41,481 nt of DNA from a virus (Duplodnaviria; Heunggongvirae; Uroviricota; Caudoviricetes), in the IMG/VR virus record IMGVR_UViG_2519103024_000007, one strand, 5' to 3'. The position numbers and the translations under genes are program-made. Below the pieces are notes generated by a model. It did no database searches. It was not told the DNA's origin and saw nothing but the letters and a program-made list of their open reading frames with translations. Shown here in pieces: positions 6,840-29,938 of this stretch; position 1 is the stretch's first letter, and each line of letters opens with the position of its first letter.

Positions 6840-9052
6840 CTAAGCGGTAACGTTTTCCTCTTCTAGTTCGTCCATCATTTTTAAATAATGCATTTCGTCA
6901 CCAGTAGCTGAAAATATTGTTCTCAATTGTTTTAGGTATTTATCTGGGTCTATGTCGCCCATATCAGTAATATTTACCGCATCAGAGTGAGAACCTCTGT
7001 TAATGTATCTGTAGAATGCTTTGAAATCACTGTTGCTATCGTCGCGTGCCAACTTTGTTAATTCATCTTGTAGAGCATCTGTTCTATGAACAAATGCAAA
7101 ATAATATTCTAGTATGTTTCTCATAATATTCGGTATTATGATTTTGTTTGCTTTGCCATCTTTTGCATCTTTTAATATTTGCCACAAAGATTGATATTCA
7201 TTCTGTATGCTGTTTTTTGTATTTCAGTAATTATACTAAAATCATTTTTCGTTACTCTACCTAGATAATAGTTTTTCTTAAATAGTTTGTCTTCTCTGCT
7301 TTTAGGAGATAGCTTAATAAGTTCATGAAAGAAATAAAGATTGTGAGTAAGGATTAATACCTTCTTTGTTAATTCATTTTTTATAATGTGGTGATGAATA
7401 ATTGATGCGATGTCGTAGACATAGTTTTGCGATAGACTAGATATTGGATCGTCAATAACAATAAAAATATCCCTGCTATCGGTATCATTTTTATCGGTTT
7501 TACCTTTACAGCACTCTAAAAAATAAAGAAACGTTATTAGTGTTTTTTCACCTTCGCTAAGAGATCTATAAACATTTTGGTTTTTTGTATGCCCTGGTCG
7601 AGATATAATGTACATATCTTTTCTTTCTGCATGTTTTTCAATACAAAAACCAGAGATCCCTAGATTTTTTAAATGGGTGTTTATTGAGTCTATCGTAGAA
7701 TCAATGTTAGATATTTTATCTCGCAATGCTTTTATTGTGAGATTATTTTCTTTTCCTTGTTGCTCAATATTATTTAATTCATCATGAACTTTCTTTTTGA
7801 TATCAAAGAATTTTTCTTTGTGTTTGGATAAATTCTCTAAATCATCGCTGCAAAAAGCATGGAGAGCCCCCCAAACTTGTTTTCCGATTTTATTCTCATA
7901 CTCTTTGAGTTTTTTAACCTTATCATTTATGTCTCTTATTTTCTTGTTAACAGCGCCTATGCTTTCCTGAACATGATTTTCTAGTTCTTTATCAATTTCT
8001 AATGTAACGCATGTTGATGGATTGTTGATCTTATCAATAATGTTTATTAAATTTTTTCTGCAATGTTTTGCAATATTTTAATATTGGAAATAATGTTCTC
8101 TTTATCTTTCTCATTGATTAGTGCACATGATGATATATTGTTTTGTATTTCGTTAAAATGATATATGGTATTTTTCTCATAAACTGACTTTATATCTGAG
8201 AGCTGTTTTACTTTCTTTGAATAACTTTCGTCAAATATTGATTTAAGGGCATTTAAAAATTCGTGACTAATAGTTTTTTCCTGACAAAACGGACATGTAG
8301 AACCGTCTAAATAATGTTCTTTACCTTTTTTTACCCAGTCAAGATTATGAAGTTTATTAATGGTTTCTGATAAATAGCTATTGCTTGTATCTATTATAGG
8401 TGTTGCTAATGTATTTACATCATCAATTGATGGGGTATATGGATGTAAAGGAGTTATTAATGCGGTTTCATTGTTTCTATTTTCTAATAGTATAGAGTAT
8501 TCTTTTGCTATATCATTTAAATTAATAAAGGTGATTGGTGAGGATGATTTTATCATCTCAAAAAAGGTCTTTTATAGCCAACTTTACCTTTCATTAAGGT
8601 TTTTAGTACAGAGTTTCTGATTGGTTCTGTTTTTTTCCAGATCGATTCGATGTATTCATTTTCTTTTTTTCCATTTCTGCTTCTAATTTCAATAACACTC
8701 CTTTTTTTTGTCTATATTGCTCTGTGAGTTGCTGTTTAATTGCTTCTTTTTCAATTAATTGTTTTTCAATATCTGCATTTTCTTTACTTAATGTAAAAAC
8801 ACCTTTTTGTTCCTGTGCATTATAGAAGTTATCTTCAATAAATTTAGTGTTGTAAACAAGAGGTTTGTAATTGTCAAGAAGGGTACATTCACACTCGTTA
8901 TAATCTGTGTGTGTAGAGTCGTAGAAATAATTTGAAATGGTAGATTTGCCACAACCATTTTGGCCGTATAGTATGTTTACTCTTTTTTCAAGATTCAGTA
9001 TTGTGAAGGCGTCTTTCTTATAACTGGTAACATTTTTTAATCTAAGTTCCAT
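6840..9052 (-). CDS. AAA_13-like ABC-type ATPase, reading frame broken in three places (pseudogene or assembly indels)
   Basis: Four collinear minus-strand ORF pieces (9052-8603, 8556-8047, open frame 8077-7172, 7223-6840). Walker A GQNGCGKST, CPFC motif in a K/E-rich coiled-coil insert, ABC signature LSEGEK, Walker B IFIVIDD, H-loop LTHN. Region is strongly AT-rich. Confidence 0.6.
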
Positions 9053-9555: not shown

Positions 9556-10590
9556 TCAGCCGTTGTCAGTGTCCAGTGAGTAGTTTTTAAAGCGGATGAC
9601 CTCCTGACCGAGCCAGCCGTTTATTTCCCGAATCCTGTCCTGTAGCGGGATAAGTTCATTGCGGACAAAGACCTTTGCCACTTTCTCAATATCACCCAGA
9701 GCCCCGACGTTTTCCGGCTTGCCGCCCATCAACTGAAAGGGGATGCGGTGCGCATCCAGCAGGTCAACGGCGCTGGCTTTTTTGATATTAAAAAAATCGT
9801 CCTTCGTCGCCACTTCACTGAGCGGGATAATTTTAATGCCGTCGGCTTTCCCCTGTGGGGCATAGAGAAACAGGTTTTTAAAGTTATTGCGGCCTTTCGA
9901 CTTCACCATGTTTTCGCGAAGCATTTCGATATCGTTGCGGTCCTGCACGGCATCGGTGACGTACATGATGTATCCGGCATGCGCGCCGTTTTCGTAATAC
10001 TTGCGGCGGAACAGCGTGGCCGACTCATTCAGCCAGGCAGAGTTAAGGGCGCTGAGATATTCCGGCAGGCCGTACAGCTCCTGATTAATATCCGGCTCCA
10101 GCAGGTGAAACACGGAACCGGGCGCGAAAGGTGTCGGCTCGTTGAAGGACGGCACCCACCAGTAAACATCCTCCTCCACGCCACGGCGGGTATATTTTGC
10201 CGGTGAGGTTTCCAGTCTGATGATCTTACCGGTGGTGCTGTAACGCTTTTCCAGAAACGCATTACCGAACACCAGAAAATCCAGCACAAAGCGGCTGAAA
10301 TCCTGTTGCGAAAGCCACGGATGCGGGATAAATGTCGAGGCCAGAATATTGCGTTTAACGTAAATCGGTGAGCTGTGATGCACGGCAGCACGCAGGCTTT
10401 TCGCCAGACCGGTAAAGCTGACCGGCGGCTCATACCATCTGCCGTTACTGATGCACTCGACGTAATCCAGAATGTCACGGCGGTCGAGTACCGGCACCGG
10501 CTCACCAAAGGTGAATGCCTCCATTTTCGGGGCGCTGGCGGTCATTTTTTTTGCCGCAGGTTGCGGTGTTTTCCCTTTTTTCTTGCTCAT
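9556..10590 (-). CDS. Q: portal protein
   Basis: 344 aa, first leftward late gene next to cos; length as P2 gpQ. Confidence 0.9.
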   Translation of the reverse strand: MSKKKGKTPQPAAKKMTASAPKMEAFTFGEPVPVLDRRDILDYVECISNGRWYEPPVSFTGLAKSLRAAVHHSSPIYVKRNILASTFIPHPWLSQQDFSRFVLDFLVFGNAFLEKRYSTTGKIIRLETSPAKYTRRGVEEDVYWWVPSFNEPTPFAPGSVFHLLEPDINQELYGLPEYLSALNSAWLNESATLFRRKYYENGAHAGYIMYVTDAVQDRNDIEMLRENMVKSKGRNNFKNLFLYAPQGKADGIKIIPLSEVATKDDFFNIKKASAVDLLDAHRIPFQLMGGKPENVGALGDIEKVAKVFVRNELIPLQDRIREINGWLGQEVIRFKNYSLDTDNG

Positions 10591-23960: not shown

Positions 23961-24488
23961 ATGCAGCATTTAAAAAATATTACTGCGGGTAATCCAAAAA
24001 CTGTTGCCCAATATCAACTGACAAAAAATTTTGATGTTATCTGGTTATGGTCCGAAGAGGGAAAAAACTGGTATGAGGAAGTAAGTAATTTTCAGGAAGA
24101 CACGATAAAGATTGTTTACGATGAGAATAATATAATTGTCGGCATCACCAGAGATGCTTCAACGCTCAACCCTGAAGGTTTTAGCGTTGTCGAGGTTCCT
24201 GATATTACCGCCAACCGACGTGCTGATGACTCAGGTAAATGGATGTTTAAGGATGGTGCCGTGATTAAGCGGATTTATACGGCAGACGAACAGCTGCAAC
24301 TGGCGGAATTACAGAAGTCAGCTTTGCTTTCCGAAGCTGAAACTATCATTCAGCCACTGGAACGCTCTGTCAGACTGAATATGGCAACAGATGAGGAGCG
24401 TAGCCGACTGGAAGCATGGGAACGCTACAGTGTTCTGGTCAGCCGTGTGGATCCTGCAAATCCTGAATGGCCGGAAATGCCGCAATAA
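23961..24488 (+). CDS. G: tail fiber assembly chaperone
   Basis: 175 aa immediately after H. Confidence 0.85.
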
Positions 24489-24522
24489 GTTGTATGATCT
24501 CTGGAGTGAGCTAACGTATCTA

Positions 24523-24564
24523 TAGCACAGAGTAAAGCCTAATCTGACAGTCTGCTCTGTGCTA
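24523..24564. repeat. 10-bp-stem hairpin (TAGCACAGAG / CTCTGTGCTA) enclosing an inverted copy of the CAGACTGTCAG motif
   Basis: Perfect inverted repeat 24523-24532 / 24555-24564; loop contains CTGACAGTCTG (24544-24554), the reverse complement of the motif at 26199 and 28509. Confidence 0.75.
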
Positions 24565-24710
24565 GGAGCGGACTGACCTGCTTCCCGATGATTAATACAC
24601 AGCTATGCTAGTAATGTCCTAGACTGGCCCCCTGAATCTCCAGACAACCAATATCACTTATTTAAGTGATAGTCTTAATACTAGTTTTTAGACTAGTCAT
24701 TGGAGAGCAG

Positions 24711-25076
24711 ATGATTGATGTCTTAGGACCGGAGAAACGCAGACGGCGTACCACACAGGAAAAGATCGCAATTGTTCAGCAGAGCTTTGAACCAGGGATG
24801 ACGGTCTCCCTCGTTGCCCGGCAACACGGTGTGGCAGCCAGCCAGTTATTTCTCTGGCGTAAGCAATACCAGGAAGGAAGTCTTACTGCTGTCGCCGCCG
24901 GAGAACAGGTTGTTCCTGCCTCTGAACTTGCTGCCGCCATGAAGCAGATTAAAGAACTCCAGCGCCTGCTCGGCAAGAAAACGATGGAAAATGAACTCCT
25001 CAAAGAAGCCGTTGAATATGGACGGGCAAAAAAGTGGATAGCGCACGCGCCCTTATTGCCCGGGGATGGGGAGTAA
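24711..25076 (+). CDS. insC: IS2 transposase orfA (InsC-like, HTH)
   Basis: 121 aa from ATG 24711, [26 protein letters not shown]... Confidence 0.85.
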
Positions 25077-26135
25077 GCTTAGTCAGCCGTTGTCTCCGGG
25101 TGTCGCGTGCGCAGTTGCACGTCATTACGACGNNNNNNNNNNNNNNNNNNNNNNNNNNNNNNNNNNNNNNNNNNNNNNNNNNNNNNNNNNNNNNNNNNNN
25201 NNNNNNNNNNNNNNNNNNNNNNNNNNNNNNNNNNNNNNNNNNNNNNNNNNNNNNNNNNNNNNNNNNNNNNNNNNNNNNNNNNNNNNNNNNNNNNNNNNNN
25301 NNNNNNNNNNNNNNNNNNNNNNNNNNNNNNNNNNNNNNNNNNNNNNNNNNNNNNNNNNNNNNNNNNNNNNNNNNNNNNNNNNNNNNNNNNNNNNNNNNNN
25401 NNNNNNNNNNNNNNNNNNNNNNNNNNNNNNNNNNNNNNNNNNNNNNNNNNNNNNNNNNNNNNNNNNNNNNNNNNNNNNNNNNNNNNNNNNNNNNNNNNNN
25501 NNNNNNNNNNNNNNNNNNNNNNNNNNNNNNNNNNNNNNNNNNNNNNNNNNNNNNNNNNNNNNNNNNNNNNNNNNNNNNNNNNNNNNNNNNNNNNNNNNNN
25601 NNNNNNNNNNNNNNNNNNNNNNNNNNNNNNNNNNNNNNNNNNNNNNNNNNNNNNNNNNNNNNNNNNNNNNNNNNNNNNNNNNNNNNNNNNNNNNNNNNNN
25701 NNNNNNNNNNNNNNNNNNNNNNNNNNNNNNNNNNNNNNNNNNNNNNNNNNNNNNNNNNNATGCTGGGAGCGGTGGAACGCCGCTCGGCAACGAGCTTCCG
25801 GCGTCTCCAGTAGAGTGGCTGACGGATAATGGTTCATGCTACCGGGCTAATGAAACACGGCAGTTTGCCCGGATGTTGGGGCTTGAACCGAAGAGCACGG
25901 CGGTGCGGAGTCCGGAGAGTAACGGCATAGCAGAGAGCTTCGTGCGATAAAGCGTGACTACATCAGTGTCATGCCCAAACCAGACGGGTTAACGGCAGCA
26001 AAGAACCTTGCAGAGGCGTTCGAGCATTATAACGAATGGCATCCGCATAGTGCACTGGGTTATCGCTCGCCACGGGAATATCTGCGGCAGCAAGCCAGTA
26101 ATGGGTTAAGTGATAACAGGTGTCTGGAAATATAG
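25034..26135 (+). CDS. insD: IS2 transposase orfB (InsD-like, DDE), interrupted by assembly gap and an apparent small deletion
   Basis: N-terminal [23 protein letters not shown] and C-terminal ...[10 protein letters not shown] are on either side of the N run; premature stop at 25948-25950 (ESFVR*) where I recall extra bases in IS2. Confidence 0.6.
25133..25759. other. assembly gap (627 N)
   Basis: Uninterrupted run of n inside IS2. Confidence 1.
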
Positions 26136-26198
26136 GGGCAAATCCATGTCCGTAGATCGCTGTGTGTTGCATCCATCGGTTGAACTCACAGTCCAAAC

Positions 26199-26219
26199 CA
26201 GACTGTCAGCTTTGATTAG
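26199..26219 (+). repeat. recombination-site-like repeat, copy 1: CAGACTGTCAG-c-TTTGATTAG
   Basis: Shares the 11-mer core and TTTGAT(T)AG extension with 28509-28528; a second TGTCAG follows 28 nt downstream in both copies. Confidence 0.8.
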
Positions 26220-26397
26220 ATTCTACCTACTCAACCTGTCAGATAAGGTCTGAGCTAATACATCTAATATATGGCTTCGTGCAGGGGACGGCTATCGCGA
26301 ACGTTAGGCCAGGTATCTGAATACGCACAGTTCACTTGGTTGTACTTCTTGCACTGATCTGCTATCCCGCACAGCTATTTATAGGTAATCTTCAGTG

Positions 26398-26403
26398 TAT
26401 AAT
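26398..26403 (+). promoter_or_regulatory. candidate -10 hexamer TATAAT for the 280-aa gene
   Basis: TATAAT 39 nt upstream of ATG 26442; strong RBS AGGAG at 26431-26435; -35 element weak. Confidence 0.35.
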
Positions 26404-26441
26404 CTGCCAACTTATGGAAGCTTGTACAACAGGAGAAATAT

Positions 26442-27284
26442 ATGAAAAAAGAATTGTTTGGACGTTGCCCGTTTGATCTTGACGAAGATGTAAAAAAAAT
26501 AGCCGCGATAAATAAATATATCCATGCAAAATTTGAGGAGCATAAAAATAAAATAGACAACCTAAAGGGTGTGGAACAAAAATTGATGGTCTTACAGTAC
26601 TTTAATGTACTGAATGAACTTAGTAATCAGGCTATCTCTTCTTTGAATATAGGAGCCTTTTCAGCATCGGAAGTATTAGCTAGGGTTATAATAGAACAGG
26701 CTGCCAATCAATTTTATATAGCAATAGATGATGGCGAAAATGCACAAGCATTACTCAAGGCTAGTAAGAAATTAGTTCATAGTAATGGAAAACGGTGGCT
26801 GGAGTGTTTAAAATCCAAAGGAATGACTAATCCAGCAGCAAATGAAAGGATTCGCATGGGAAAAGAACTAACTGATCTATTTAATAGATTGTGGCCAAAT
26901 ACACCTGAATATCCAGGAACCAGAAGACTTTTTGAATTAATTGGCTGGGAAACACACTATCATGCCCATTACGTTCCCCTTTGTGATTCAATACATACAT
27001 TCTCTGATGATATGGTAAATATAGTATCTCTATATAATGCAATCCAAAGTGATGAAAATACTGCTATCGAATTCATTCTTGCAGTTAAACAAGAAAATAA
27101 ACGGCTGGCAATTTATAATTTTGTAATTGCTACGGCCCTTCGGTGTGAGGCCTTAGTAAATGTATTTAACTCTTTAGGTTATCAGGATATTATAACAGAA
27201 ATGACACCAACAATAGATACAGTCAACCAGACTATAATTCGATATGATGATTTTGATCATTCCAGAATTGATGATTGTCAATAA
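26442..27284 (+). CDS. hypothetical protein, 280 aa, no motif recognised (cargo gene 1)
   Basis: AT-rich ORF with strong RBS; soluble, no TM segment; no catalytic motif I can assign by eye. Confidence 0.6.
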   Translation: MKKELFGRCPFDLDEDVKKIAAINKYIHAKFEEHKNKIDNLKGVEQKLMVLQYFNVLNELSNQAISSLNIGAFSASEVLARVIIEQAANQFYIAIDDGENAQALLKASKKLVHSNGKRWLECLKSKGMTNPAANERIRMGKELTDLFNRLWPNTPEYPGTRRLFELIGWETHYHAHYVPLCDSIHTFSDDMVNIVSLYNAIQSDENTAIEFILAVKQENKRLAIYNFVIATALRCEALVNVFNSLGYQDIITEMTPTIDTVNQTIIRYDDFDHSRIDDCQ

Positions 27285-27390
27285 TTAATTGACAGAATAC
27301 GTACATGCGCAACAACTAGTGATAGTTGACTTATTTTCGCTCTTGAGAGACAACCATACTCAAATCTCCCACATTGCAGGAGATTTGAAT

Positions 27391-27975
27391 ATGAAAACGT
27401 CACCGTGGAATAAAGACCGTACCATCGGTCAAAAAAGGCCACTTCAGATATTTCATATCTGGGGGATCCGGATTAGACTTGAGTTGGAAGGTAAAACACG
27501 CGATCTAGCTCTGTTCAACATGGCTTTGGACACTAAGCTACGGGGCTGTGATTTGGTCAAACTCAAAGTATCAGATGCTGCATATGGCAGTTCTGTCTCA
27601 AGCAGAGCAACGGTGTTGCAACAGAAAACCGGCAGCCCTGTCCAATTTGAGATAACCAAAGGGACAAGGGAAGCGGTTACTGCATTGATAAAGCTCGGCA
27701 ACTGGCATAGTAAAGGCTTCCTGTTCCGCTCTCGGGTCGGAACTAACCACCATATATCAACCCGGCAATACAACCGAATTTTTCATGGGTGGGTAGAAAA
27801 GCTTGGTCTCGAAGATTCGCTGTACAGCACACATTCCATGAGAAGAACAAAACCTTACTTAATCTACAAGAAAACCAAGAGTCTCCGGGTGATCCAACTT
27901 CTGTTGGGCCATAAGAAACTGGAAAGCACAGTCCGTTATTTGGGCATTGAAGTCGATATAGAAGGTCTCTTTTAA
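27391..27975 (+). CDS. short tyrosine recombinase, catalytic domain only (FimB/FimE-like size)
   Basis: ATG 27391 with RBS AGGAG 8 nt upstream (track ORF starts at upstream TTG 27289); box I LRGCDLVKL, conserved K in QKTG, box II HSMRRT...LLGH...TVRY; about 194 aa, no N-terminal core-binding domain. Confidence 0.65.
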   Translation: MKTSPWNKDRTIGQKRPLQIFHIWGIRIRLELEGKTRDLALFNMALDTKLRGCDLVKLKVSDAAYGSSVSSRATVLQQKTGSPVQFEITKGTREAVTALIKLGNWHSKGFLFRSRVGTNHHISTRQYNRIFHGWVEKLGLEDSLYSTHSMRRTKPYLIYKKTKSLRVIQLLLGHKKLESTVRYLGIEVDIEGLF

Positions 27976-27997
27976 GTTATGGGGGCTGATTTTATAT

Positions 27998-28387
27998 TCA
28001 ATAGCGTATGCTCATCGAAGAAATAAACTCATAAAATGTAAAGACAGCCAGCAAAAACATACAGATAAAGATAAGGGAAATAGCACACTTAACTAAGGGC
28101 TGAACCCCCCGAGGTGTTCCCCATGGTTTAGACATTTGGGTTATAACCCAAATAAATAAGGCCACAAAACAGCAAACACCAGCCAATCCGAGCAGAGATA
28201 TTATGACAACTCCAAACAGATTTCCAACATCTAGTTTATCTGTTTTTGCAACTAGGGTTAACAAACCAGCAATAATAGTTGCAATCGATATTCCCGCAAT
28301 GGTTGTGAGATCGGCGATAACAGCCAGTTTTTCTTTAGTATTTCCTTGAGTAAAGACCTCTAAAATTGATTTCATGGAAATAACCAC
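27998..28387 (-). CDS. small membrane protein, three predicted TM helices (cargo gene 3)
   Basis: 129-aa ORF convergent with the recombinase gene; three long hydrophobic stretches. Confidence 0.5.
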   Translation of the reverse strand: MVISMKSILEVFTQGNTKEKLAVIADLTTIAGISIATIIAGLLTLVAKTDKLDVGNLFGVVIISLLGLAGVCCFVALFIWVITQMSKPWGTPRGVQPLVKCAISLIFICMFLLAVFTFYEFISSMSIRY

Positions 28388-28508
28388 CTACTATCGATTA
28401 TATTCAGGAGCTTTTTATCATAACGATATCAGATAGATAAGGACATTGTAATATTTTGGATGATTTAAACTTGCTTTTGTAACTCTAATGTCCACTTTTC
28501 GCTCAAAG

Positions 28509-28528
28509 CAGACTGTCAGGTTTGATAG
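28509..28528 (+). repeat. recombination-site-like repeat, copy 2: CAGACTGTCAG-g-TTTGATAG
   Basis: Direct-orientation partner of 26199-26219; followed by a second TGTCAG at 28548-28553. Confidence 0.8.
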
Positions 28529-28582
28529 CATTTGGGCTATGTAAATTGTCAGGCGGAAAATGAGTGAGTACAAATCAGGACA

Positions 28583-28609
28583 GGCGGGCGAATTGCCCGC
28601 CTTTTCTTT
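28583..28609 (+). terminator. rho-independent terminator candidate
   Basis: GGCGGGC-gaatt-GCCCGCC stem-loop followed by TTTTCTTT, about 100 nt upstream of FI. Confidence 0.5.
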
Positions 28610-28705
28610 ATCTGTTGTTTCATCCACTGACCAGCCAGGTCAAATAGCGTCTTATGCTCTGCACAACAGAAAATAGTTGTACCCATTAACCACGGAGTTA
28701 AACGG

Positions 28706-29938
28706 ATGAGTGACTATCATCATGGCGTGCAGGTGCTGGAGATTAACGACGGCACCCGCGTCATTTCCACCGTATCCACTGCCATTGTCGGCATGGTCTG
28801 CACGGCCAGCGATGCGGATGCGGAAACCTTCCCCCTCAATAAACCGGTGCTGATTACCAATGTGCAAAGCGCAATTGCAAAGGCCGGTAAAAAAGGCACG
28901 CTGGCGGCATCGTTGCAGGCCATCGCTGACCAGTCAAAACCGGTCACCGTTGTCGTGCGCGTGGAAGACTGCACCGGTGATGACGAGGAAACGAAACTCG
29001 CGCAGACCGTTTCCAATATCATCGGCACCACCGACGAAAACGGTCAGTACACCGGACTAAAAGCCCTGCTGGCGGCGGAGTCGGTAACCGGTGTTAAACC
29101 GCGTATTCTCGGTGTGCCGGGACTGGATACCAAAGAGGTGGCTGTTGCACTGGCATCCGTCTGTCAGAAGCTGCGCGCTTTCGGATATATCAGCGCATGG
29201 GGCTGTAAGACCATTTCCGAGGTGAAAGCCTACCGCCAGAATTTCAGCCAGCGTGAGCTGATGGTCATCTGGCCGGATTTCCTCGCATGGGATACGGTCA
29301 CCAGTACCACCGCTACCGCGTATGCCACCGCCCGTGCGCTGGGTCTGCGCGCTAAAATCGACCAGGAGCAGGGCTGGCATAAAACGCTGTCCAACGTCGG
29401 GGTAAACGGTGTTACCGGCATCAGCGCATCTGTATTCTGGGATTTGCAGGAGTCCGGCACCGATGCTGACCTGCTTAACGAGTCAGGCGTCACTACGCTG
29501 ATTCGCCGCGACGGTTTCCGATTCTGGGGTAACCGTACCTGCTCTGATGACCCGCTGTTCCTCTTTGAAAACTACACCCGCACCGCGCAGGTACTGGCTG
29601 ACACGATGGCTGAGGCGCACATGTGGGCGGTGGACAAGCCCATCACCGCAACGCTGATTCGCGACATCGTTGACGGCATCAATGCCAAATTCCGTGAGCT
29701 GAAAACAAACGGCTATATCGTGGATGCGACCTGCTGGTTCAGCGAAGAATCCAACGATGCGGAAACCCTCAAGGCCGGAAAACTGTATATCGACTACGAC
29801 TATACACCGGTGCCTCCTCTTGAAAACCTGACCCTGCGCCAGCGTATTACCGATAAATACCTGGCAAATCTGGTCACCTCGGTTAACAGCAATTATAAGG
29901 AGCCTGACCGATGGCAATGCCGCGCAAACTCAAGTTAA
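28706..29938 (+). CDS. FI: tail sheath protein
   Basis: 410 aa as read; 3' end overlaps FII by 28 nt, so the true stop may differ. Confidence 0.9.
   Translation: MSDYHHGVQVLEINDGTRVISTVSTAIVGMVCTASDADAETFPLNKPVLITNVQSAIAKAGKKGTLAASLQAIADQSKPVTVVVRVEDCTGDDEETKLAQTVSNIIGTTDENGQYTGLKALLAAESVTGVKPRILGVPGLDTKEVAVALASVCQKLRAFGYISAWGCKTISEVKAYRQNFSQRELMVIWPDFLAWDTVTSTTATAYATARALGLRAKIDQEQGWHKTLSNVGVNGVTGISASVFWDLQESGTDADLLNESGVTTLIRRDGFRFWGNRTCSDDPLFLFENYTRTAQVLADTMAEAHMWAVDKPITATLIRDIVDGINAKFRELKTNGYIVDATCWFSEESNDAETLKAGKLYIDYDYTPVPPLENLTLRQRITDKYLANLVTSVNSNYKEPDRWQCRANSS

Follow-up and report, generated by a model that had tools for sequence, protein, structure and literature searches.

We analyzed 41,481 nt of viral DNA (IMG/VR record IMGVR_UViG_2519103024_000007; hereafter, the window) that contains a P2-like prophage, and examined the interval between its gene G, which ends at 24488, and the sheath gene FI, which starts at 28706 in the open reading frame (ORF) listing of the window. 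This interval is the Z/fun cargo slot of P2-like prophages, as an original prediction made from the sequence had recognized, and it holds genes for a DUF5677 protein, a small tyrosine recombinase and a small membrane protein. The slot probably serves as a docking site in a site-specific platform for gene cassettes that is found in the Enterobacterales, and its contents would be two unrelated cassettes together with a truncated recombinase rather than one system. The three genes have no demonstrated functional link.

The cargo slot, its border sites and the cassette arrays

What truly brackets the cargo is the pair of inverted repeats, left and right, that belongs to the P2 'Z region'. GenBank AJ512676-83 ('P2-EC30 to EC58 proviral Z-region') annotates these repeats on either side of ORFs for 'putative lysogenic conversion'. 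The left repeat of the window (24461-24573) matches the 'left inverted repeat' features of these records, and the right repeat (28490-28580) matches what AJ512677 and related records label 'right inverted repeat'; the window copies are 87-92% identical to the annotated ones. The DNA just 3' of G matches about 70 phage records and the DNA just 5' of FI about 96. The DNA of the interval is foreign, as had been proposed, and AT-rich: the GC content is 0.33-0.41 at 26350-27400 and 27850-28600, rises to 0.47 at most across the recombinase gene, and stands at 0.50-0.59 from FI onward. With its position between G and FI and with both inverted repeats at its flanks, the segment 24550-28513 reads as the cargo of the P2 Z/fun slot.

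To characterize these borders, we used 80 loci that had been obtained by scanning a genome collection with the recombinase. A profile built from the repeat copies matches these loci far above chance, and the matches resolve into a 24-bp unit with 9-bp inverted arms (GTCCGCTyy / rrAGCGGAC) and a 6-bp spacer. The spacer defines two classes, type 1 (GTCCGCTyy-TGGCAC-rrAGCGGAC) and type 2 (GTCCGCTyy-TCGCTC-rrAGCGGAC). Across the 1.38 Mb of these loci, all of them chosen by the recombinase, a strict scan found 226 sites, compared with 0 in shuffles, and a relaxed scan found 296, compared with 4. When the loci are oriented so that the recombinase gene reads on the plus strand, type-1 sites fall on the minus strand by 141:1 and type-2 sites on the plus strand by 148:6. 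In the chromosomal and plasmid arrays each cassette (median length 2.2 kb) stands between a reversed type-1 site and a type-2 site, and neighboring cassettes meet at a joint that consists of a type-2 site, about 17 nt and a reversed type-1 site, with a start-to-start spacing of 38-43 nt (mode 42). Site density is maximal at the recombinase gene. This gene is itself located in a joint: its conservation starts 54 nt before the start codon, in the spacer TCGCTC, and ends at a GTGCCA spacer, just past the stem-loop that follows the stop codon. The loci combine two spacer classes, a fixed polarity and breakpoints at spacers.

The P2 slot obeys the same grammar. The inner ends of the Z-region repeats each have 9-bp arms and a 6-bp spacer, GTGCTA on the left and TCGCTC on the right. 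The left core site (24550-24573; GTCTGCTCT-GTGCTA-GGAGCGGAC) is a type-1 site read on the minus strand, and the right core site (28490-28513; GTCCACTTT-TCGCTC-AAAGCAGAC) is a type-2 site. Canonical P2 carries fun(Z), the anti-T5 gene known as an occupant of this slot, between the same two sites (P2 15335-15358 and 17432-17455). Cargo homology with a lambdoid prophage (L003) and with another P2 prophage (L006) stops at 24573, and in L006 two cassettes occupy one P2 slot with a canonical joint between them. Only the two outer sites of the window are intact; two internal ones, site B (26180-26228) and a site at 27327-27350, are degenerate.

These results change how the two related direct sites of about 20 bp, which the original prediction took as the borders of a single module, should be read. 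The sites themselves are real: CAGACTGTCAGNTTTGAT occurs exactly at 26199 and 28509, shuffles give 0.08 matches when up to 3 mismatches are allowed, and a 49-nt stretch is 71% identical. The copy at 28509, also found in P2 phages with other cargo, is the backbone 'right inverted repeat', and its real partner is a third, weaker copy in inverted orientation at 24537-24554, left of the IS2 insertion sequence, that had been overlooked. Since the 28509 copy is P2 backbone and the 26199 copy travels with DUF5677 outside P2, the two direct sites define no single module. An attempt to derive the long backbone repeats from one ancestral site failed because the two spacers differ.

Breakpoints in the arrays point to recombination at the sites. 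Cargo homology ends within 12 nt of a site center in 36 of 133 cases, compared with 2 of 146 random positions. The array of Enterobacter sp. Bisph1 (L023) and that of Cedecea davisae (L030) share 99.97% identity over 8.7 kb, recombinase included, and differ by two insertions. The first, of 2.58 kb, lies at a type-1 site, where the outer arms are kept, the inner arms are swapped exactly across GTGCCA and a new joint has been created; the second, of 1.49 kb, lies at a type-2 site and has its break at the arm/spacer border. Both are as expected for conservative site-specific integration of a circle. The nearby recombinase would be the enzyme that acts on the sites, an inference from their co-occurrence. 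A third array, from Hafnia paralvei (L086), is nearly identical to that of C. davisae; across Enterobacter, Cedecea and Hafnia the arrays, with the recombinase in them, are 99.97-100% identical and differ by whole cassettes only. The near-identity of these three arrays therefore indicates very recent transfer between genera.

We also observed one cassette in opposite orientations relative to the recombinase in two other loci, L024 (7652-7675) and L031 (12865-12888). Their homology ends inside the spacers, which are hybrid (GTGC/TG and GAGC/TG), and rare exchange between the two site classes may have occurred there. In addition, a further conserved flank, CTGTCAGNTT(T/A)GAT, adjoins the outer side of some sites, namely those at the ends of the P2 slot, at one end of an array in CFT073 (L002 4476-4517) and near the membrane-protein gene of Pectobacterium (L098 and L099, about 2394). 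This flank may mark array termini.

The cargo of the arrays comprises 378 ORFs in 272 clusters, and mixes transporters, regulators and oxidoreductases with defence-like ATPases and SIR2, S_4TM, HerA and GmrSD domains.

The occupants of the slot

The recombinase gene (27391-27975, plus strand) encodes 194 aa from ATG 27391, the RefSeq start, and not from TTG 27289. Its product matches PF00589 (E 1.5e-17, 64 bits against a cut-off of 27), in agreement with the earlier description of a short tyrosine recombinase that has a catalytic domain only. About 35 residues precede the catalytic domain, and Pfam gave no second domain that could represent an N-terminal core-binding domain. By our own reading, the putative catalytic residues R51, K79, H148, R151, H174 and Y183 are all present. 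A PDB sequence search found no relative of the recombinase, and its scores against the Xer, IntI and Fim-invertase models are far below every cut-off. Relatives with a full length of 200 aa, mostly 88-96% identical in protein sequence, occur in many genera of Enterobacterales (Buttiauxella, Pantoea, Serratia, Pectobacterium, Klebsiella, Erwinia and others), in every case amid arrays of the 24-bp sites, and more distant ones in marine Gammaproteobacteria. About 860 further E. coli genomes carry the recombinase gene alone (27337-27957), with a nucleotide identity of 88-90%. We opened three of these loci (L002, L004 and L005), which lie in a CFT073 island, in an island of strain FY10 and in a region near ypjA, and their neighboring genes are unrelated.

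On its left, the recombinase unit is bordered by the degenerate type-2 site at 27327-27350 (plus strand; GACTTATTT-TCGCTC-TTGAGAGAC), and it is within the spacer TCGCTC, at 27337, that homology with the other recombinase loci begins. The 5' leader contains a hairpin at 27355-27393 (plus strand; inverted repeat I7, 15 nt, 93% complementary) with an RNA folding energy of -18.3 kcal/mol (z -2.9). It pairs the Shine-Dalgarno sequence GGAG and the start codon region, and its sequence is kept in nearly all recombinase loci, with the counterpart at positions 9938-10003 of most of loci L015-L094. The hairpin may keep the recombinase translationally silent.

The right end of the gene is different. The window copy diverges from all full-length copies at 27957, after ...GIEVD, and ends in IEGLF instead of DALEISESIEV. 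At this junction (27955-27960) the 3' end of the recombinase gene runs into a terminator hairpin, at its loop, that lies downstream of the membrane-protein gene; position 27957 is both where homology with the recombinase loci stops and where homology with L006 begins. A deletion appears to have removed the last 11 codons of the recombinase, its own downstream site and the rest of the neighboring cassette. We considered a recombination site at this junction and rejected it: the partner side is a terminator loop, which indicates an ordinary deletion. Two independent truncations of the recombinase occur at one place, after GAAGTCGA, namely at 27957 of the window and in a metagenome-assembled genome of Leclercia (L058, about 10565). 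Just upstream of the truncation point, GTCCGTTAT-CTGGGC-ATTGAAGTC bears a loose likeness to a site, and a secondary site within the recombinase gene is possible.

The membrane-protein gene (27998-28375, minus strand; phrog_4155) is convergent with the recombinase gene and encodes a small, hydrophobic product. The RefSeq start, ATG 28375, gives 125 aa in place of the 129 aa that had been counted from GTG 28387, and the three transmembrane helices ascribed to it are probable, as read from the sequence. Homologues are found only in Enterobacterales, and the protein has no family assignment. In the P2 prophage L006, the segment 27957-28513 is present without the other two genes, beside a DUF6650 gene. 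In Serratia (L097), the membrane-protein gene is convergent with a gene for a 555-aa STAND-like NTPase in a cassette flanked by type-1 and type-2 sites, and L006 retains a remnant of the last 53 residues of this NTPase (89% identical). The membrane-protein gene of the window thus looks like the survivor of a cassette that also held the STAND-like NTPase. Because the homologies with the recombinase loci and with L006 meet at 27957, and L006 keeps the NTPase remnant, we hold the deletion responsible for the missing NTPase gene as well as for the missing end of the recombinase and its downstream site. A constant pairing of the membrane protein with the STAND-like NTPase was rejected, as the neighbor in Pectobacterium is unrelated.

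The first gene of the block (26442-27284, plus strand) encodes the 280-aa protein, for which no motif had been assigned. It does match a Pfam family, DUF5677, with an E value of 8e-10, above the cut-off. The family is small, with 51 representatives among 1.8 billion proteins, and in an alignment of 46 sequences R81, E85, Y173 and H185 are invariant. The predicted structure (predicted local distance difference test score, 95) is all-helical, and the model suggests an HEPN-like four-helix core. However, in contrast to the HEPN proteins of abortive-infection and toxin systems, the DUF5677 protein lacks the contiguous Rx4-6H motif, which is absent from the 46-sequence alignment, and its invariant residues lie far apart (R81 and H185 are separated by 104 residues). 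A Foldseek search of the model against the PDB gave no significant match, a PDB sequence search with the DUF5677 profile gave chance matches only, and NCBIfam returned nothing useful for the DUF5677 and membrane proteins. The protein is most likely a stand-alone HEPN-like protein. Our best guess, held with low confidence, is that it is an RNA-targeting protein of the abortive-infection type.

The pair of DUF5677 and recombinase genes also occurs in the lambdoid prophage L003 and in Buttiauxella (L015), and distant DUF5677 homologues (41-54% identity) occur alone, without any recombinase. In two lambdoid prophages, a lone DUF5677 homologue lies just after the replication genes, among defence-like genes. 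The DUF5677 gene is beside an AAA ATPase with an HNH nuclease in L003 (7151-9146), and beside DUF4365, NADAR with PRTase-CE and a GAPS4-type nuclease in L009 (7293-12819). There thus seems to be a second hotspot at this position behind the replication genes. Site B, the left 'direct repeat' of the original prediction, is a degenerate type-2 copy on the plus strand (TTGAACTCA-CAGTCC-AAACCAGAC, followed by the flank TGTCAGCTTTGAT; nhmmer E 1.8e-8), and its conservation is limited to the right arm and the flank. It accompanies DUF5677 in L003 and L015, outside P2. The approximately 75 nt between the left site and site B seem to resemble the start of a cassette in L024 and L031.

The non-coding leader of the DUF5677 cassette is interrupted by an element at 24620-26146 (plus strand), recognized from the sequence and ORF translations, which we take to be IS2 from its InsC sequence. 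It precedes the three genes, as had been predicted, and is flanked by a 5-bp target duplication, TGTCC, at 24615-24619 and 26147-26151. A run of N at 25133-25759 masks the middle of IS2, the orfB frame is shifted near 25945 with a stop near 25948, and the span as given is 1527 bp. Of 5426 complete E. coli genomes, 36 carry the whole block, and among these carriers isolate ECA64 (L001) has the block and lacks IS2. In NZ_CM160072.1, the module is present at 100% identity with an internal insertion of about 1.3 kb and without IS2 at the position of the window; therefore, different IS insertions have struck the same block. A megablast search of the module against 50,697 phage records gave no match, although the DUF5677 and membrane proteins have PHROG families.

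Other features lie outside the block. Between the right repeat and FI, the P2 backbone (28577-28705, plus strand) has a stem-loop and T-run (28577-28607) followed by the region of the late promoter of the F operon; the counterparts are annotated in NC_001895 and are 92-94% identical across P2 phages. An Rfam search of 24300-28800 with E values up to 1 gave no match. The other P2 hotspot of the window, between gpA and the portal gene, has three minus-strand ORFs (7172-9052) of 184, 169 and 149 aa. Their products match successive parts of PDC-S06, a PADLOC candidate of about 727 aa (AAA_13/PrrC-like ATPase), at profile positions 4-143, 176-335 and 447-611, respectively. The three ORFs look like a fragmented defence gene, which is probably dead.

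Known systems and alternative explanations

The closest match to the slot is the P2 'Z region' of AJ512676-83, which shares with the window the same slot, the same left and right inverted repeats and variable foreign ORFs between them. These records belong to Nilsson, Karlsson and Haggard-Ljungquist 2004. Unlike them, the window has a candidate recombinase among its cargo, and its repeats resolve into 24-bp sites of two classes that also occur in arrays outside phages. Integrons are similar in that a tyrosine recombinase stands beside very diverse cassettes, whose borders lie at short imperfect palindromes and whose intermediates are presumed to be circular. However, the platform recombinase has 200 aa, lacks the N-terminal domain and scores 17.8 bits with the NCBIfam integron integrase models, whose cut-offs are 435 and 265. 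The platform sites are short 9-6-9 sites of the duplex type in two classes, whereas attC sites are folded and 57-141 nt long, and the platform has neither attI nor a common promoter. A single gene or several make up each of its cassettes, apparently under promoters of their own; the genes point in either direction, and cassettes flank the recombinase gene on both sides. Neither the integrase type nor the long attC sites with a common promoter that mark an integron were found.

The pdif modules of Acinetobacter plasmids have dif-like XerC/XerD sites, 28 bp in length (11-6-11), and presumably rely on XerCD of the host. As in these modules, short sites alternate in orientation and each module lies between inverted sites; unlike them, the platform has 24-bp sites and a dedicated small recombinase, which scores 42.7 bits against the XerC cut-off of 335 and 25 against the XerD cut-off of 330. 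The recombinase resembles FimB and FimE in having about 200 aa and essentially a catalytic domain only. However, the platform signature is the insertion and deletion of cassettes and not inversion, and both the score for the invertase family (22 bits against 222) and the inverted junction (0 of 5426 E. coli genomes) fail to place it with these enzymes.

We weighed three other explanations of the slot. The one put forward originally is that the three genes form a single anti-phage or exclusion system, mobilized or switched by its own recombinase at the 26199 and 28509 repeats. The block is indeed kept as a unit in the 36 E. coli genomes, the slot is the one that holds fun(Z), the DUF5677 model has a predicted HEPN-like fold, and small membrane proteins are common defence effectors. 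However, the 36 genomes fit clonal spread of one prophage variant, and each gene is found without the others elsewhere. When the G-FI interval is compared across prophages, the module does not travel as a unit with its flanking repeats: the left repeat travels with DUF5677 outside P2, and the right repeat is P2 backbone. The deletion both truncated the recombinase and removed the former neighbor of the membrane-protein gene. In addition, none of the three proteins matched a family in PADLOC-DB 2.0 at E values up to 1. We therefore consider a single system very unlikely, while the involvement of a site-specific recombinase and related short sites, which was part of the same proposal, is upheld. 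As for defence, a role is plausible for the DUF5677 gene alone, from its HEPN-like fold and its positions in prophage hotspots. A Bacillota DUF5677 protein was enriched next to serine recombinases, but in the defence tests of the same study it was not one of the five positive ORFs (PMC12632615).

Another possibility is that the 24-bp elements are passive repeats, such as hairpins or terminators resembling repetitive extragenic palindromes, that the slot turns over by homologous recombination in its conserved flanks, and that the recombinase is an unrelated hitch-hiker or the remnant of an integrase. A hairpin of 7 bp with a loop of 10 nt is possible at each site, P2 slots usually have no recombinase, and a bioRxiv study of P2/P4 hotspot turnover names tyrosine or site-specific recombination, in the passages searched, only for the integration of elements (10.64898/2026.02.27.708500). 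However, this reading has against it the strict polarity of two alternating spacer classes, a 9-6-9 layout typical of the core sites of tyrosine recombinases, arms that are swapped exactly across the spacer in near-identical arrays, a recombinase unit whose conservation is bounded by half-sites, and a site density that is maximal at the recombinase gene. This explanation is unlikely. Least probable of all, to the point that we give it hardly any weight, is a phase-variable switch in which a recombinase of Fim size flips a segment between inverted repeats and so turns the cargo on or off. The two backbone sites are mutually inverted, and the recombinase, of about 200 aa like FimB and FimE, has a weak match to a 'tyrosine-type DNA invertase' model (E 8e-5). 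Nevertheless, the unlike spacers should block productive exchange, the synthetic inverted junction is absent from all of the E. coli genomes searched, and the score is a tenth of the family cut-off.

The docking site for a cassette platform, which we favor, also has points against it. The link between recombinase and sites is a co-occurrence in loci that were selected by the recombinase, and the control DNA amounts to no more than about 130 kb (the window, L007-L011 and L097-L099), in which the sites are confined to the slot and the surroundings of the Serratia cassette. Sites without a recombinase are found in AJ512677, AJ512680, AJ512681, canonical P2 and L006; therefore, the recombinase would have to act in trans on these Z regions. 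The left site of the window is one mismatch from the consensus spacer, site B and the 27327 site are degenerate, the left module border falls away from any spacer in the lambdoid prophage L003, and the truncated recombinase copy of the window may be inactive. The array cargo also includes many ordinary metabolic and regulatory genes, some of which may be flanking chromosome and not cassettes.

Proposed mechanism and implications

In the mechanism that we propose, the recombinase would bind the arms and exchange strands across the spacer. The unlike spacers at the two ends of a cassette would not allow recombination between these ends, so that inversion would be prevented. Sites of the same class would recombine, and a circle of cargo and joint could thereby be excised, or inserted at any matching site, including the two sites of the P2 slot. 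The slot of the window would have gained the DUF5677 cassette, the recombinase unit and a cassette with the STAND-like NTPase and the membrane protein. A deletion would then have removed the last 11 codons of the recombinase, the downstream site and the NTPase gene, and IS2 would have entered the DUF5677 leader. With the internal sites now degenerate, the block would be locked as one unit between the backbone sites.

A more far-reaching proposal is that the 200-aa recombinase without a core-binding domain and the two mutually incompatible 24-bp sites constitute an uncharacterized, integron-like platform of the duplex-site type, which shuttles cassettes of one to several genes, for defence and for metabolism, between chromosomes, plasmids and the P2 Z/fun slot. 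We advance this tentatively, as a possibility that falls short of being probable. Novelty may lie in which recombinase is involved, in the grammar of two site classes and in the existence of arrays outside phages; the full text that we searched, which misses most subscription journals, contained no description of the arrays or of the recombinase. If the proposal is true, the 2004 work on the Z region would have seen the phage-side repeats only, and the window would show that a phage can carry the recombinase gene itself between hosts.

If the inferred mechanism holds, the classic P2 slot would turn over by a specific mechanism and not only by homologous recombination in its flanks, and phage cargo would be tied to the cassette arrays of many enterobacterial genera. 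The enzyme of 200 aa and its two 24-bp sites without cross-reaction would then make up a compact exchange device. The genes of the slot are best read as independent cassettes and not as operon-like systems, and the 24-bp sites provide exact borders for the mining of cargo, including many unannotated candidates.

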